Positions 5,418 through 10,472 of a stretch of 24,000 nt of DNA are shown here, in pieces; the stretch's first letter is position 1, and every line of letters begins with the position of its first letter. The notes under the pieces are model-generated. The model saw nothing but the letters and a program-made list of their open reading frames with translations. It did no database searches and was not told the DNA's origin. The position numbers were made by a program, and so were the translations under genes. This stretch comes from an uncultured Erysipelotrichaceae bacterium (GTDB lineage Bacteria > Bacillota_I > Bacilli_A > RF39 > UBA660): the NCBI GenBank assembly GCA_948444795.1, contig CAOJUX010000001.1, forward strand, positions 57,828-81,827, given 5' to 3'.

Positions 5418-5897
5418 ATGTTGTTTGAAAATAATAATTATAATTATGACTATGATTATGATTTAGATGTAGATTTAAATTTATTAAATTTATCGGGTTT
5501 TGATCCAAATAATATAAAAAGAATTTATGATAATGCTAAATTATATAGTATAGAAGAAGGATTTTTAAGAGGTAATATGTGGAAAAATGAATATCTTCCA
5601 TATAAAAATTTAAAATATGGTAAATTAGTTCCAACTAATCAAGAAGAAGCATTAAAATTTAAAATAATGGCTCATGAATTTGCTTTAAATGACTTTAATC
5701 TATATTTAGATTTACATCCAGATGATATCGAAATATATCAAAAATTTAAAGAATGCATTGAACATTGTTTAAAATTACAAGATGAATATGCTAAAAAATA
5801 TGGGCCACTTATGTTAGTCCAAGATAAAGGTACTAAATATGATTGGATAAAAAATCCATGGCCTTGGGATAATGATGGAGGTAGTATGTATGTATAA
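5418..5897 (+). CDS. cotJB: spore coat protein, CotJA-like N-terminal half fused to a CotJB domain
   Basis: The N-terminal EEGFLRGNMWKNEYLPY matches the CotJA signature (ALRKGTLWKDLY.FY in B. subtilis). The C-terminal FALNDFNLYLDLHPDD...YAKKYGPL...NPWPW matches CotJB (LTLYLDTHPDD...YGPL...GPWPW). The RBS is AGGGGG. Confidence 0.75.
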   Translation: MLFENNNYNYDYDYDLDVDLNLLNLSGFDPNNIKRIYDNAKLYSIEEGFLRGNMWKNEYLPYKNLKYGKLVPTNQEEALKFKIMAHEFALNDFNLYLDLHPDDIEIYQKFKECIEHCLKLQDEYAKKYGPLMLVQDKGTKYDWIKNPWPWDNDGGSMYV

Positions 5898-6108
5898 ATA
5901 TATGAAAACTTTAACATATCCAGTTAATATAAAAAAGAAAAATTTGAAAATGGCCAAATATATGTATACTCAACTTGGTGGTCCTAATTCAGAACTTTCT
6001 GCAGCTCTTCGTTATTTTAGTCAAAAATTTTCTATGCCTGATGAAAAAGGAAAAGCGCTTTTGAATGATATAGCTACTGAAGAATTGAAACATACAATAT
6101 ATAAATGA
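5890..6108 (+). pseudogene. cotJC: cotJC (Mn-catalase-family spore coat protein), 5' fragment truncated by prophage insertion
   Basis: The start at 5890 (RBS GGAGG, overlapping the cotJB stop) gives MYKYMKTLTYPVNIKK...QLGGPNSELSAALRYFSQKFSMP...LLNDIATEELKH. This is colinear with roughly the first 68 residues of CotJC. After the conserved ...TEELxH it reads TIYK-stop instead of LEM..., whereas full-length CotJC is about 190 aa. Confidence 0.85.
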
Positions 6109-6590
6109 TATCATCCAACCATTATATAATGAATAATTTAAAATGTAGAAAACAAAAATTAAATGGTTTATTTGAATGTAAAAAAACAAATAAATTAATA
6201 AATATAAAAGAATGTAATAATTGTATATATAAAGAATATAAAGATAAAACAAAATGCACAATAAATCAAAAATATTGTGCAAAAATAAAAAATAGAACTT
6301 ATAAACAAACTAAGAAAGAAAAAAATCGTAAGTCTATTTTAACAAATGATTTAAATCATTGCATAATATGTGGTGCAAAAAAGGACCATCTTCACGAAGT
6401 ATTTTCAGGTGCTTATAGAACACATTCAATTAATGAAAACATGGTGTTACCTTTATGTGTTTTTCATCATACTCAAATTCATAAAGATATCGAATTAAGT
6501 TTATTCTGGAAACGACTCTGTCAACAAAAATTTGAAGAATCTCGAACAAGAGACGAATTTATCAAAATTTTTGGAAGAAGTTATTTATGA
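6105..6590 (+). CDS. Cys-rich zinc-ribbon plus HNH/His-Me-finger-like protein (NinG/Rap- or YbcO-like, tentative)
   Basis: The C-terminal half reads CIICGAKKDHLHEVFSGAYRTHSINENMVLPLCVFHHTQIH, giving the pattern CxxCG...H...R...N...C..HH..H. The N-terminal part has six spaced Cys residues and a K-rich linker. There is no obvious SD, and the ATG at 6105 overlaps the cotJC' TGA. An alternative start at 6129 is possible. Confidence 0.4.
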   Translation: MISSNHYIMNNLKCRKQKLNGLFECKKTNKLINIKECNNCIYKEYKDKTKCTINQKYCAKIKNRTYKQTKKEKNRKSILTNDLNHCIICGAKKDHLHEVFSGAYRTHSINENMVLPLCVFHHTQIHKDIELSLFWKRLCQQKFEESRTRDEFIKIFGRSYL

Positions 6591-6730
6591 AAGAAATATG
6601 GAAAGATATAAAAGGATATGAAGAATTGTATCAAGTTAGCAATCTTGGAACTGTTAAGGTCTTAACTTTTAGAAATAATAAATACACAATAAAAAAGGAA
6701 AGAAGGAATTATAATGAACAAAGAAAATAA
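6587..6730 (+). pseudogene. NUMOD4-motif fragment (N-terminal remnant of an HNH homing endonuclease), 47 codons
   Basis: Not in the ORF track. The ATG at 6587 overlaps the TGA of the previous ORF. MKEIWKDIKGYEELYQVSNLGTVKV is the classic NUMOD4 signature (WK.I.GYEG.YQVSN.G.V.S), but no HNH or DNA-binding part follows. Confidence 0.55.
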
Positions 6731-7562
6731 AAGTTATTTTAATAAACTTAAAGAAAGATTAGAAAATACTGATTGGGAACAATTGGCAAAAGATCGATAT
6801 CAAGAAGAAATAAATAATCCTAATAATTATTCATTTTGGTATCCTAAGGTAAAAGATTGTGGTATAAAAATGGTTAATTCAAGAATTTACAAGTTTTCAT
6901 ACGAAGCTTGGAATAAATTTAGGGAAATAGATGGCAATAAGCAGGCTTGGATTGATTATGTTAATTATATACAATCGTTAATAGAAAAAGATAAAACTTT
7001 AGAACATAAAAAAATATACAATATAAAAAATGGTTGTTTCAGTAACAAATTTAATGCAGTAGATTGTAATGTTAAATATAAAGATATTGCTAAAAAGTTT
7101 GTAGATATTCAATACACAAGTTACCTTTATGGGGCAGGTGGAACTACTGAATTAATTATACGTGATTATATAGATTACGATTATACTAAAACACCAACTA
7201 TTTATAATGGATTGCCATTAAGAACCGAATTTAGAGTATTTGTAGATTTTGATAGCGAAAAAGTTTTATATATAGTTAATTATTGGGATTACAATTATTG
7301 TTATCCTAGTATATATAATGCCACTGATAAAATTGTATTTAAACATATGAGAAACAAAATTCAAAAGGATTATGAAAAATATAAAGACTATGTAGTAAAC
7401 CAAGTTAAAGAAAAATTATTAAATTACAACAAAAGCAATAACAATGGACTTACAGGAAAATGGTCAATTGATATTATGAAAGAAAAAAATGACTTTTATT
7501 TAATAGATATGGCTATAGCTTATCAATCTGCTTATTGGGATTCTAGCAAAATTAAAAAATGA
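6714..7562 (+). CDS. ATP-grasp fold protein, CDC123/R2K-clade-like
   Basis: The RBS is GAAGGAA. The string of motifs resembles the R2K ATP-grasp clade. The motifs are IKNGCFSNKF (like SPKD), ELIIRDYIDY, LPLRTEFRVFVDFDSEKVLYIVNYWD (like EFRcFV...is.Rd) and WSIDIMKEKNDFYLIDMAIAYQSAYW (like DvY....v.LiDfNPf). The call is by eye only. Confidence 0.5.
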   Translation: MNKENKSYFNKLKERLENTDWEQLAKDRYQEEINNPNNYSFWYPKVKDCGIKMVNSRIYKFSYEAWNKFREIDGNKQAWIDYVNYIQSLIEKDKTLEHKKIYNIKNGCFSNKFNAVDCNVKYKDIAKKFVDIQYTSYLYGAGGTTELIIRDYIDYDYTKTPTIYNGLPLRTEFRVFVDFDSEKVLYIVNYWDYNYCYPSIYNATDKIVFKHMRNKIQKDYEKYKDYVVNQVKEKLLNYNKSNNNGLTGKWSIDIMKEKNDFYLIDMAIAYQSAYWDSSKIKK

Positions 7563-7614
7563 TATGTTTTGTCGATTTTAACATATTTCTTTCATTTTTG
7601 AATATAATAAAAAA

Positions 7615-7644
7615 GATCCTTGGTTACCCGTGTGGGCCAAGGAC
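7615..7644. repeat. IR-L, the left copy of a 30-bp GC-rich hairpin element, also a likely bidirectional terminator
   Basis: The sequence is GATCCTTGGTTACCCGTGTGGGCCAAGGAC. It matches the reverse complement of 8616-8645 at 27/30 positions, with a perfect 20-bp core at 7620-7639. It folds locally as CCTTGG-(TTA)-CCC-GTGT-GGG-CCAAGG, with T-rich runs on both sides. It ends 3 nt from the Abi stop codon. Confidence 0.85.
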
Positions 7645-7647
7645 ATT

Positions 7648-8592
7648 TTATTTTATGCTAATCCAATTAATAGGCAATCCCATACATTCTTTAACGCAAG
7701 AAATATCTATTGTTTTTAATTTCTGAGATAAACTTCTTAATCTTCCTTCTATTTTATTACAAACGTTATTAAAATCTTCTTGAGGCAGTAATATTTTAAA
7801 ACAAATAATTAGCGAAAATATATCATTTTTGCCTTGAATATATCTTGAATTTAAAATTGAAATATTAAGTTGTTTATGATATATGGTATCTGGAATAGCC
7901 TGATTGTTTTTTGCATTGAATAATCTTTCGTCATGAGCGCATAGATTACGATAAAAAGCCATATTTTTAATATATTGATCTAAATCATAATCTTGTATAT
8001 CCCAATGTTTTGCAACTTCTTGTCTAATTTTTTGTTTCATTAGAGAATAAAATTGACTTAAGCGCCCAAGAGTTAAGCAATTAACTAATACCCACATGGG
8101 AACAAATCCATAATTTAAAATATAATGATTTACATAATCTTTTTTAGAAATATTGTAAGAGATATCACTTTGTAGATTGCTTAATAATAATTGAATTTTT
8201 TCTATTCTTTCTTCGTATTTTTGTAGAGTACATCCACTACCCTTTAAAGTTTCAAAATTATCTAATTTCAAATAATTATCATTTCCATACTTTTCAGAAA
8301 AATTGTAAGCAATTAGTGACCTCAAAATGTTTTCTACTTTTAATATAGGTTTAAAGAATATATTTTTCAAAATTCTATCAAAATCATACAAAGCATATAT
8401 TTCTTCGAATGTTGTTCCTTCTAGAAAAACATCTTTACTGTTTGGCTTCATAAATAAATCTTTATAACCATTAATAATATTATAATAATTTTCTTCTGCT
8501 AACTTTTCTTTGGCAAATTTTTCATCAGATATTATTAAACCTCTATTTCTTAAAATTGCAATTTGTTCATCATATGTTTTAAATTCTTTCAT
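7648..8592 (-). CDS. Abi_2 family abortive-infection protein (AbiD/AbiF-like)
   Basis: The start is taken at 8592 (RBS AAAGGAG, product MKEFKTYDEQIAILRNRGLIISDE...EENYYNIINGY). RNLCAHDERLFN matches the conserved RN..aH..r.wn motif of Abi_2. The 16-codon upstream extension in the ORF track runs through the IR and is rejected. Confidence 0.85.
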   Translation of the reverse strand: MKEFKTYDEQIAILRNRGLIISDEKFAKEKLAEENYYNIINGYKDLFMKPNSKDVFLEGTTFEEIYALYDFDRILKNIFFKPILKVENILRSLIAYNFSEKYGNDNYLKLDNFETLKGSGCTLQKYEERIEKIQLLLSNLQSDISYNISKKDYVNHYILNYGFVPMWVLVNCLTLGRLSQFYSLMKQKIRQEVAKHWDIQDYDLDQYIKNMAFYRNLCAHDERLFNAKNNQAIPDTIYHKQLNISILNSRYIQGKNDIFSLIICFKILLPQEDFNNVCNKIEGRLRSLSQKLKTIDISCVKECMGLPINWISIK

Positions 8593-8615
8593 AAACAGCT
8601 CCTTTAATAAAAAAA

Positions 8616-8645
8616 GTCTCTGGCCCACACGGGTAACCAAAGATC
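8616..8645. repeat. IR-R, the right (inverted) copy of the 30-bp GC-rich hairpin element, in the Abi 5' leader
   Basis: The sequence is GTCTCTGGCCCACACGGGTAACCAAAGATC, with a perfect core at 8621-8640. In the minus-strand RNA it forms the same hairpin, followed by U7 (complement of 8609-8615) and then immediately by the Abi RBS. Confidence 0.85.
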
Positions 8646-8657
8646 AATCACAATTAA

Positions 8658-8685
8658 ATTATATCAATAAATAGAAAAAATGCAA
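8658..8685 (-). promoter_or_regulatory. sigma-A type promoter upstream of IR-R and the Abi gene
   Basis: On the minus strand the -35 TTGCAT is at 8685-8680 and the spacer is 16 nt. The extended -10 TGATATAAT has its hexamer at 8663-8658. The predicted transcription start at about 8650 lies just 5' of the IR-R hairpin. Confidence 0.5.
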
Positions 8686-8795
8686 CAAAAAATTGTGTTT
8701 TTTTACTCTTTTTTTATTTATTTTATAACTTTTAACATATTTTAAACCATTTTATACGTTTTTAAGACATTTCGAATTTTATATAATAATAACAT

Positions 8796-8930
8796 TTACT
8801 TTTTTATATTATTTAACGATCTGTAATGTCTACGCATACTTTTTAAAACTCTAAGTTTAGCACATCCTGGATATACTCTACTATAATATTTTATTTCTCT
8901 TTCTAAAATTTTTAATTTTCTTTCTATCAA
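8796..8930 (-). CDS. possible 44-codon basic small ORF (TTG start)
   Basis: Not in the ORF track. The product is LIERKLKILEREIKYYSRVYPGCAKLRVLKSMRRHYRSLNNIKK. It is preceded by AGGGTGA and a plausible promoter (TCGACA, 16 nt, TATGAT, roughly 8945-8975 on the minus strand). There is no family match, and it could be noise in AT-rich DNA. Confidence 0.25.
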   Translation of the reverse strand: MIERKLKILEREIKYYSRVYPGCAKLRVLKSMRRHYRSLNNIKK

Positions 8931-9001
8931 CCTAATCACCCTAATATAAAATATATCATATTTTTAGTGCTAAACTTGTCGAAATATGTAATTTATTGCA
9001 T

Positions 9002-9040
9002 TAAAAAAAGAGGTAGCCTCTAAATTAGAAGTTACCTCTA
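9002..9040 (-). terminator. intrinsic terminator after the 9042-9425 ORF
   Basis: On the minus strand AGAGG-CTA-CCTCT (9021-9009) is followed by TTTTTT. An alternative is the 7-bp stem AGAGGTA/TACCTCT (9039-9033 with 9015-9009). The hairpin starts right after the stop codon. Confidence 0.55.
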
Positions 9041-9041
9041 T

Positions 9042-9425
9042 TTATTCAATATTATAATGTATAGCTTCGTCTTTTTTCTTTCTGTTAGAAATTTTTATTG
9101 GTTTAACTGGATACCAACTTTTAACTTTTAAAACCTTACCTGAATTTATTCTTATAGCAACACATATATCATCATTTATTTTTTTATAATATTCTAAACC
9201 TTTTGTTGTTTTATTATAAAAAACATAATCAGGTCTTTTAATTATATTATTAAGCTCATCATAAATCTTGTCAATTTCTTCTTTTGTGCCAAAATCTTGC
9301 AAATGTGAGTCTATAACATGTTGCTTTCTATCATCGTAAACTAATATTGGTTTATTTTTATGTTCACTTATATCCCAATATTCTGCTATATCTTCTTCTA
9401 AAATTCCAACATATTTATAACTCAT
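9042..9425 (-). CDS. small putative nuclease/toxin, PBECR-like (phage Barnase-EndoU-ColicinE5/D-RelE-like), tentative
   Basis: The 127-aa ORF has the RBS GGAAGGA. The layout ILVYDDRKQHVIDSHLQDF...IYDELNNIIKRPDYVFYNK...ICVAIRIN...KVKSWYPV resembles free-standing PBECR-type proteins (..tdeR..Hi...H......yi..ii..PDyi..d......v.vkl......s.y.i). The call is from memory of the family pattern only. Confidence 0.4.
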   Translation of the reverse strand: MSYKYVGILEEDIAEYWDISEHKNKPILVYDDRKQHVIDSHLQDFGTKEEIDKIYDELNNIIKRPDYVFYNKTTKGLEYYKKINDDICVAIRINSGKVLKVKSWYPVKPIKISNRKKKDEAIHYNIE

Positions 9426-9767: not shown

Positions 9768-10472
9768 TTATTTATACCAGCTTTTTTTGTAAGGGAAATA
9801 TCTAAGTTGATTGTTTACATATCCCTTTAACCAAGTATATTCATTTGCAGTTCCGACGTTCATAGAAACGTTTTTTATAATTGTACCAGTTTTATAAAGA
9901 ACTTTAGATTTATTAAAACCTATGCCTCCAATTCTTGCATAAACGCTTGTTGTTAGTGTTAAATTTTTTGATAAAGTATTTGTATTAGTTGTAGTCTTTT
10001 TGATACCAAAATAAGTATAATATGAGCTACAACATGATTTAGACATTGATTTACTCTCATCGCCAAACCATTTACGTGGTTTAACATCTATATGAGTATA
10101 ATTACTACTACCTCCACATTTATATCCGATACCACATTTATGTCCTAGATCTTCTAAAGCAAGTGCTACTTGTTTACTTGGTATTATTTTACCATTTTTA
10201 TCAGTGAATTTTATATCACAAGCATAACCTTGATGAGTATTACTAATAGTTTTTGATTTAGTAACCGTTCTTTCGTGTGTAGGGCAACGATATCCAGATG
10301 AAATATCTCCTCTTACTGCGCATATTTTTTTCATAACTTTTTCAAGTAGTGGTGGTAATGTATCTGCTATCACTATTTTATGATTTTTACCACATTTGCA
10401 CTTCCATTCATAAACGCAAAAATGTTCTGATAAACGACTTCTATCATTGTATTTGTACTCTATTAATTTCAT
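9768..10472 (-). CDS. endolysin with an N-terminal Peptidase_M15 (zinc D-Ala-D-Ala carboxypeptidase-like) domain and a C-terminal SH3-like wall-binding region
   Basis: LSEHFCVYEWKCKCG...SSGYRCPTHERTV...HQGYACDI...THIDV fits the M15 H-x-D...H zinc site. It is the last gene of the late operon, directly after a holin. Confidence 0.75.
   Translation of the reverse strand: MKLIEYKYNDRSRLSEHFCVYEWKCKCGKNHKIVIADTLPPLLEKVMKKICAVRGDISSGYRCPTHERTVTKSKTISNTHQGYACDIKFTDKNGKIIPSKQVALALEDLGHKCGIGYKCGGSSNYTHIDVKPRKWFGDESKSMSKSCCSSYYTYFGIKKTTTNTNTLSKNLTLTTSVYARIGGIGFNKSKVLYKTGTIIKNVSMNVGTANEYTWLKGYVNNQLRYFPYKKSWYK

Follow-up and report, generated by a model that had tools for sequence, protein, structure and literature searches.

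Introduction

In Bacillota prophages, few single-gene candidates for phage defence are as common as the AbiD/F (Abi_2) genes, which in 2025 were tied to type III toxin-antitoxin (TA) biology and to the origin of Cas13. Here we examine a gene of this family, abi, in a stretch of 24,000 nucleotides from an uncultured Erysipelotrichaceae bacterium (contig CAOJUX010000001.1; the whole stretch is called the window), where the gene is bracketed by two inverted copies of a 30-bp hairpin element, one in its leader (the right copy) and one at its stop codon (the left, or 3', copy).

The closest described systems pair a toxin of this family with an upstream RNA. AbiF of C. difficile phi027 is a toxin that the upstream RNA RCd22 neutralises in cis and in trans; RCd22 consists of two abiF motifs (Rfam family RF03085) followed by a terminator, ends upstream of abiF and binds AbiF (PMC12373285). 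Reviews describe PbAbiF as a HEPN dimer with one non-coding RNA (ncRNA) bound per monomer and see in AbiF the ancestor of Cas13 (PMC12737573, PMC13064643). For L. lactis abiD1, the only visible transcript, of 50 nt, ends at a terminator that immediately precedes the gene; the abiD1 mRNA arises by read-through, and a stem formed by the poly-U tract and the ribosome-binding site (RBS) was tested and inhibits translation (Anba 1995; Bidnenko 2009, PMC2661086). The Rfam family RF03085 covers only part of the AbiD/F family.

On balance, we lean towards reading the 30-bp elements as two copies of one hairpin-RNA motif, cognate to an abortive-infection toxin gene of AbiD/AbiF type, with which they form a self-contained cassette at the end of a prophage, past the lysis genes. 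The anatomy of the locus, its conservation and covariation, the orientation of the U-tracts, the homology of the protein and the lack of dispersed copies were observed directly, and are described below together with the alternatives on which they bear.

Results

Two inverted copies of a bulged hairpin bracket abi

The cassette consists of the following features.

7648..8592, minus strand: abi gene, encoding a 314-aa HEPN protein of the Abi_2/AbiD/AbiF family, presumed to be an RNase toxin
8658..8685, minus strand: cassette promoter, with -35 box TTGCAT (8685-8680), a 16-nt spacer and TG-extended -10 element TGATATAAT (8666-8658), read from the sequence
8610..8652, minus strand: leader RNA motif, with 5' tail UGUGAUUGA, hairpin (8645-8616) and U7 (8615-8609)
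8593..8616, minus strand: U-tract and RBS AAAGGAG (8605-8599), which would pair as a small second hairpin in the read-through mRNA
7608..7650, plus strand (opposite to abi): second hairpin motif, with GAUC, hairpin (7615-7644) and then GAC-AUUUUAUUUU
7580..7608, plus strand: promoter-like block, with AACATA (7580-7585), 17 nt, TATAAT (7603-7608) and then 6 nt to GATCC, read from the sequence

The first-pass annotation of this stretch had reported that 7615-7644 matches the reverse complement of 8616-8645 at 27 of 30 positions around a perfect 20-bp core, that the left copy ends 3 nt past the abi stop codon, that the right copy lies between a promoter and the abi RBS, and that each copy forms a bulged hairpin followed by a U-tract in the abi sense. 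Re-reading the sequence bears out all of these statements. The two copies agree at 27/30 positions and are by far the best inverted repeat between 7000 and 9300, where a repeat search extends the arms to 7615-7655 and 8605-8645 (41 nt, 85% complementary, spacing 949 nt) and the remaining inverted repeats are AT-rich and weaker. The core, TTGGTTACCCGTGTGGGCCA, is found exactly twice in the 24 kb, at 7620-7639 (plus strand) and 8621-8640 (minus strand), and nowhere else in the window with up to 3 mismatches; 100 dinucleotide shuffles gave no occurrence, even allowing 3 mismatches. Its G+C content is 12/20, against 22-26% in the surrounding region. The stop codon occupies 7648-7650, the -10 box TATAAT lies at 8663-8658 with a TG two bases upstream, and the U-tracts in the abi sense are U7 at the leader and T6 at the left copy.

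Both copies share one fold, in which an outer stem of 7 bp leads through a 3-nt bulge to a G/C inner stem of 3 bp, capped by a tetraloop. The three differences between them leave the leader stem paired, one being a compensatory change from C-G to U-A and another creating a G.U pair, which holds only when the leader is read on its abi-sense strand. That the copies are truly inverted, as had been argued from the bulge, is shown by this asymmetric bulge together with the GUGU/ACAC loop. In both copies a GC-rich stem-loop is followed by a U-run, as in an intrinsic terminator; a simple terminator scan of the window detected neither hairpin, because of the bulge.

The protein assigns the gene to the AbiD/AbiF family. 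Starting at the ATG at 8592, and not at the TTG at 8640, it matches Pfam PF07751 over profile positions 2-184 of 184 (E=1.1e-43), is AbiD in PADLOC (E=6.7e-63) and matches the structure of PbAbiF (PDB 8VZ6, E=8e-18), while its identity to C. difficile AbiFCd is only ~30%. The HEPN motif R-[NHD]-x3-H is present as RNLCAH at residues 215-220 (R215-N216-L-C-A-H220), which aligns with RNSCCH of PbAbiF 8VZ6, and R215, N216, C218, A219 and H220 are invariant across 34 aligned homologues. A homologue search found 698 proteins, every one with PF07751, and about 200 loci encoding Abi homologues, numbered with the prefix L, were gathered for comparison.

A predicted hairpin-terminator RNA, conserved in relatives, precedes the gene

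Read in the direction of abi, the leader runs TTGCAT, 16 nt, TGATATAAT, 5 nt, UGUGAUUGA, hairpin, U7, AUU, AAAGGAG, 6 nt and ATG. The hairpin (outer stem of 7 bp, UUA bulge, CCC/GGG inner stem and GUGU loop) has a folding energy of -11.2 kcal/mol and is followed by U7 on the abi strand; a covariance model (R1) that was trained on leaders only gives it 62.3 bits. In the predicted fold of 8593-8652 (minus strand), the pairing (((((((....))))))) joins CUUUUUU with AAAGGAG, sequestering the RBS.

This leader, with promoter, hairpin, U-tract and RBS, is kept in all homologues with at least ~45% protein identity. In 33 distinct relatives the promoter follows TTGACA-17±1-TATAAT, with a mean score of 10.3/12 compared with 7.8/12 for shuffled sequences, and the distance from the end of the -10 box to the hairpin base is 12 nt in nearly all of them. 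The outer helix shows compensatory changes at 6/7 pairs, with 95.8% of cells paired (17 relatives), and its covariation score is 0.47, slid controls reaching no more than 0.16. Among relatives the bulge, (U)UA, and the apex, YCC-(C)GUGU-GGR, are constant, and the G.U pairs of the hairpin are found on the abi-sense strand only. A structured RNA upstream of the toxin open reading frame (ORF), a shared promoter and an intrinsic terminator before the ORF are thus present, by sequence anatomy, in the window and its relatives.

Over a wider range, 74 of the 85 non-redundant loci with at least 33% identity carry an upstream hairpin of -8 kcal/mol or lower with a T-run before the start codon, shuffled controls having means of about -2 kcal/mol. 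Homologues at 33-44% identity have different 5'-bulged hairpins with U-tracts at the same location. Among the Abi_2 clades at 35-42% identity, L085-L092, L069-L078 and L109 carry leader hairpins of their own, which are conserved and lie ~30-70 nt ahead of the ATG, for example CCUCCGG-UGU-CC-UUCG-GG-CCCGGGGG with a U-tract, every such leader having a 3-nt 5' bulge; RF03085 matched none of the leaders of these clades, and a scan of 20 distant homologue loci for the abiF motif returned none.

In two relatives (L022:2540-2680 and L028:2357-2500) about 90 nt with a second TTGACA/TATA promoter separate the hairpin terminator from the abi start, and the hairpin RNA there is therefore a transcription unit separate from the toxin. 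As read from the sequence, this layout fits a trans-acting RNA better than a mere attenuator. We also noted a decayed cassette at L023:4290-4500, in which the promoter, an intact leader hairpin and the first ~30 abi codons are followed by unrelated sequence.

The AbiF-ncRNA type III TA systems (PbAbiF/AbiFr, AbiFCd/RCd22) resemble the window in several respects. They share an Abi_2/HEPN toxin, to which the 8VZ6 match points, and a small structured RNA from the toxin promoter with an intrinsic terminator before the ORF and toxin production by read-through, the latter read here from sequence. They also share the position of a prophage cassette beside the lysis module and the presence of two RNA motifs per locus or dimer. 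The window RNA differs in having its bulge on the 5' side and a tetraloop, where RF03085 bulges by 6 nt on the 3' side; in being itself the terminator stem, whereas the AbiF motif precedes a separate terminator; and in its second motif, which is inverted at the stop codon on the other strand and not tandem upstream. The AbiD1 leader, likened here by its published layout and not by sequence comparison, belongs to the same protein family and has the 50-nt transcript layout, the RBS directly after the poly-U tract and the poly-U/RBS stem; unlike the window gene, abiD1 is plasmid-borne and co-transcribed with two downstream genes, and the publication on it makes no mention of a 3' inverted copy (PMC2661086). 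In ToxIN/AbiQ type III TA systems, antitoxin RNA and toxin likewise share a promoter, with an intervening terminator that sets their ratio, but the toxin fold is unrelated (ToxN/AbiQ endoribonucleases) and the antitoxin consists of tandem 34-36-nt pseudoknot repeats processed by the toxin, where the window has one bulged hairpin upstream and one, inverted, downstream.

A leader terminator that restrains a toxic Abi, one of the readings offered in the first-pass annotation, is the best supported of them, with a layout found family-wide and experimental precedent in abiD1 (PMC2661086) and RCd22 (PMC12373285). Beyond that reading, analogy makes it probable that the leader hairpin doubles as an antitoxin RNA, in the manner of a type III TA system. 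A sigma-70 promoter would start an RNA with a short conserved 5' tail, the bulged hairpin and U7; most transcripts would stop at U7, giving an RNA of ~45-50 nt, and occasional read-through would yield the abi mRNA, in which the U-tract could pair with the RBS. The leader RNA would act as attenuator and as probable antitoxin, binding and blocking the HEPN protein, as its homology with AbiF/AbiFr, RCd22 and AbiD1 suggests. We are rather confident that the leader RNA is made and terminated, and consider it reasonably probable, from the analogy, that it binds and blocks the HEPN protein.

A second copy of the motif faces inwards at the stop codon

The model R1 also finds the left copy, over the full model length on the plus strand (49.8 bits), and the fold of this copy has -15.3 kcal/mol (z=-2.8). 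U-tracts flank it on both sides, as AUUUUAUUUU when the plus strand is read and as U6 when the minus strand is read (the abi-sense T6, 7614-7609), and in the window, where it lies between convergent genes, the copy looks from its sequence like a bidirectional terminator. A full-length R1 match on the opposite strand is present at the stop codon in essentially every locus at 48-100% protein identity (23-53 bits), amounting to ~27 distinct sequences, always at the stop codon and almost always on the opposite strand. The copy is missing from L042 and from the group at 46% identity (L049-52), and no inverted 3' signal was found below 48% identity. There are two tandem antisense copies in L032 (1135-1201), and in L038 (2100-2175) two tandem copies in direct (abi-sense) orientation, 40 nt past the stop. 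These tandem copies are reminiscent of the two tandem abiF motifs in RCd22.

The helix of the 3' copy covaries independently, at 5/7 outer pairs and with 91.8% of cells paired. Its stem, CCTAAG/CCTAGG, includes the stop codon in most lineages, and CCTAAG is kept where the stop lies 3 nt upstream (L040 and the window), so that its retention cannot be put down to coding constraint. On the antisense strand the 3' copy is followed by a T-run of at least 4 in 24/27 lineages, and on the abi-sense strand in 4/27, the window being one of the four. This asymmetry indicates that, as a terminator, the 3' copy faces into abi and usually does not terminate it. Upstream of the copy, in the antisense direction, relatives share a position-conserved wTGwATA-N16-17-CATAAT-(T)TAATGATCC, beyond which conservation stops; the corresponding block of the window (7580-7608) is, from its sequence, a possible weak promoter for an antisense hairpin RNA.

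Pointing inwards on the opposite strand, the left copy would stop transcription entering abi from downstream, and a transcript stopped there would end in the same protein-binding hairpin, making it a probable second source of antitoxin that is independent of the toxin promoter. We hold only tentatively that the 3' unit both halts incoming antisense transcription and yields the same hairpin RNA. A step further, to a toxin gene that has on either side a gene for its cognate antitoxin RNA, both facing inwards, with read-through of the 3' unit running antisense to the toxin mRNA as in a type III/type I hybrid, is conceivable but doubtful. In type I TA systems such as B. subtilis txpA/RatA and bsrG/SR4, a convergent antisense RNA with a clear promoter overlaps the 3' end of the toxin gene and works by long base-pairing with the toxin mRNA. 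The window resembles them in that a small RNA unit, here a predicted one, lies opposite the 3' end of the toxin gene and points into it; unlike them, this unit would stop after ~45 nt, overlapping only the last few codons, and no consensus promoter can be demonstrated for it.

Both hairpins could instead be ordinary intrinsic terminators that insulate a moron, without any RNA-protein role, the upstream one blocking read-through from the late/lysis operon and damping the cassette promoter, and the downstream one stopping abi and its convergent neighbour. Each copy does have a stem and a U-tract, the left copy of the window has T-runs on both sides and separates convergent genes, and leader terminators are common attenuators. 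A plain terminator, however, needs no conserved bulge, inner helix and loop, and yet from 45 to 100% protein identity the outer stems of both copies covary freely while the apex is held. In addition, 23 of the 27 relatives have no sense-side T-run at the 3' hairpin, which hence would not terminate abi, the hairpin RNA of L022 and L028 is a transcription unit of its own, and experimentally characterised members of the family use the upstream RNA as antitoxin (PMC12373285). We therefore regard insulation by terminators as an unlikely full account of the two hairpins.

The two copies evolve as separate hairpins

In most loci the two copies are only ~70% alike. The outer stem of the leader differs by lineage (TTTGG, CCTAG, TCGAG, TCTGG and TTCGG), while that of the 3' copy stays CCTAAG/CTTAGG across lineages, and changes are thus compensated within each hairpin and not between the copies. 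The apex class, in turn, is equal in both copies of a locus, being either UUA-CCC..GGG or UA-UCC..GGA. Strict co-variation of the loops between copies was looked for and not found (GTTG and GTGT in L039, GTGC and GTGT in L191). The whole hairpin has been homogenised in the lineage of the window and L001 (29/29 in L001, 27/30 in the window), which suggests gene conversion or a shared binding partner. Judging from these sequences, the near-perfect repeat of the window is a lineage-specific extreme of a general architecture.

These observations bear on a further possibility, that the 3' element, transcribed in the abi sense, serves as a complement to the leader, either as a panhandle of the mRNA or as a target of the leader RNA, in a type I-like manner with, for example, cleavage by RNase III. 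The 27/30 complementarity in the window and the matching apex classes within loci speak for it, as does the energy of the cofold of the leader with the sense 3' element, which in every locus (-31 to -57 kcal/mol) is better than that of the separate hairpins (-18 to -30 kcal/mol). It is at odds with the variable leader and constant 3' outer stems, whose compensation is internal to each hairpin, and with the loops of L039 and L191. Moreover, internal compensation has altered the inner helix of the 3' copy in the subclade at 62-70% identity, at the cost of its complementarity to the leader; in L038 the 3' copies are intact in direct orientation, which abolishes it; and the asymmetry of the U-tracts points to the antisense strand. 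Such pairing seems to us quite improbable. The 5'-3' panhandle put forward in the first-pass annotation is accordingly possible on thermodynamic grounds and shows no sign of selection, as the outer stems evolve independently and one lineage has its 3' copy flipped.

The cassette recurs as a unit and its hairpins are not dispersed

A search of 185,579 species genomes for the core, with the pattern TTGGTTACCCGNGTN{0,1}GGGCCA, gave 11 matches, where we estimate ~9 to be expected by chance. Five of them are in metagenome-assembled genomes of Bacillota, each as a single copy (L017, L022, L023, L024 and L027): in L017, on the contig of L008, the hairpin lies upstream of a full-length Abi gene, in L022 and L024 it adjoins Abi genes (tblastn), in L023 it is followed by an Abi remnant, and in L027 it is at the contig edge. 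The other six are in unrelated, GC-richer taxa and have no Abi gene. A scan of viral contigs for the exact core gave 0 matches. The search for further copies that had been proposed thus returns single leader copies in Bacillota, and the element is not REP-like.

Repetitive extragenic palindromes (REP), the mosaic elements built from them (BIME) and miniature inverted-repeat transposable elements (MITE) are, like the window motif, short GC-rich imperfect palindromes at gene ends, here in an AT-rich genome, but the window motif is not dispersed, occurring twice in the window and, in the scan of species genomes, once per genome of a relative, as a leader. A dispersed repeat of these kinds was rejected as a candidate on the same counts.

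The promoter, hairpin, abi, hairpin and a 36-nt block downstream form a unit that occurs in at least 6 unrelated genomic contexts, which include the following.

Downstream of an endolysin gene: L002-7 and L192
Past a helix-turn-helix gene that adjoins tRNA genes: L008
holA-rarA interval: L195
Past a restriction-modification pair: L197
Beside an integrase: L190

Phage morons, units of promoter, gene and terminator that lie between the late genes and the attachment site, are defined by their position and their autonomy. The abi cassette resembles them as an autonomous accessory defence gene at the prophage end past the endolysin, recurring in various phages and chromosomal sites; a specific conserved RNA motif that is duplicated and inverted lies outside the moron concept. 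The earlier proposal of a self-contained cassette insulated on both sides stands in part: the unit recurs across contexts, but in relatives the 3' hairpin faces inwards by the T-run counts given above and does not usually terminate abi.

One may also ask if the arms are terminal inverted repeats of a MITE-like or insertion sequence (IS)-like cassette, or the ends of a segment inverted by a recombinase. Inverted repeats do bracket a 1-kb gene, the cassette is found in many contexts, and a Logan contig of the closest homologue (L001, 78% identity) starts and ends exactly in a perfect 29-nt inverted repeat (1-29 and 1000-1028). These ends are probably a break in the assembly graph and not a biological end, because a k=31 graph breaks at a perfect inverted repeat of 29 nt. 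In the genome scan all Bacillota matches are single Abi-leader copies, the rest being chance matches in unrelated taxa, and viral contigs have none. We found no target-site duplication flanking 7615/8645, and no transposase, invertase or other recombinase among the neighbours. Conservation runs past both arms, into the promoter upstream and the 36-nt block downstream, so that the arms are not the ends of an element; in most relatives the arms diverge to the extent described above, and the six contigs that share the endolysin flank have one orientation throughout. An IS, transposon or invertible segment was rejected on these grounds, and the invertible or mobile segment of the first-pass annotation is extremely improbable. 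From its sequence contexts, the cassette travels as a functional unit and not via its repeats.

A plasmid protein search returned only distant Abi genes (at most 31% identity), a single-protein scan of viral contigs found no relatives, an alignment-based scan found one viral contig only from the close clade (L108), and a DNA search of a phage collection gave Abi matches that were short and distant only.

Genomic setting

The window contains a prophage end, with tail sheath, tape measure and endolysin (9768-10472). After the endolysin come a PBECR3 nuclease-like gene (9042-9425), abi, plus-strand genes and the host genes cotJB, spoU and sufB; no tRNA genes were found in the window. A position downstream of the lysis module has been reported for many abiF/abi_2 genes (PMC12373285).

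The gene between the endolysin and the abi cassette (9042-9425, minus strand) encodes 127 aa with a PBECR3/PBECR2 (barnase/EndoU/colicin-like) nuclease domain. It has a terminator-like hairpin on either side (9475-9454 and 9021-9009) and is possibly another accessory toxin or defence gene carried by the prophage. Between its terminator and the abi promoter lies an AT-rich gap of ~350 nt (8690-9040), which matched no known RNA family and holds an ORF for a very basic 47-aa protein (8796-8939, minus strand). On the other side of abi, the ORF at 6105-6590 has a weak HNH-like PHROG match, and just past it, at 6600-6673, a stretch of 43-74 nt shares 80-91% identity with portions of the HNH endonuclease genes found in several Enterococcus phages. 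Another metagenomic contig (L192:3844-5349, compared with window 5418-5897) carries an abi cassette with 57% identity, likewise at a prophage end adjoining cotJB/cotJC, which suggests a shared integration region near the cotJ operon for the two cassettes.

Discussion

The reading of both hairpins as copies of a cognate antitoxin RNA motif has several observations to contend with. The first concerns the leader. No match to RF03085 was obtained in 7450-9100 on either strand at E<=10, although the positive control, phiC2, scored 37.6 bits, so the antitoxin role is argued from family analogy and architecture and not from RNA homology. A scan of the whole window against Rfam at the gathering score also returned nothing, which places the hairpin outside the catalogued RNA families. 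The others concern the 3' copy. The block upstream of it scores no better against the sigma-70 consensus (8.26/12) than shuffled sequences do (7.99/12). The wobble test is weak, counting 1 G.U and 0 A.C for the outer helix and about 5 and 1, respectively, for the inner helix, which is less certain, and favours the antisense strand as the functional one only weakly. Folding energies by strand do not discriminate the functional strand of the 3' copy, because the complement of a hairpin with Watson-Crick pairs throughout acquires one more closing pair, a G.U. The sequence of the 3' apex has drifted from that of the leader in the 62-70% subclade, where the shape alone is kept, and in the window the left copy, with its sense-side T6, could simply terminate abi. 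Finally, we infer the transcription of either RNA, the RNA-protein binding and the role of the 3' copy.

What appears to be new in these sequences is a hairpin-terminator RNA that is absent from Rfam, together with its conserved inverted copy at the stop codon; a 2025 Cell paper may already cover the RNA, and no description of the inverted 3' copy was found in the accessible literature on the family.

The compact hairpin-terminator RNA defined here, with the support of covariation, differs from the described RNA partner and belongs to a large gut-associated clade. Should the 3' copy prove to supply antitoxin as well, this would be a new means of setting the antitoxin:toxin ratio while shielding the toxin gene from transcription on both sides, and two inward-facing antitoxin genes would give a motif-gene-motif layout in the protein family that is thought to have given rise to Cas13. 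Even if the 3' copy is a terminator only, the covariance model serves as an annotation marker and as a guide to cloning such cassettes with their native control elements, which were shown to be essential in lactococcal work.

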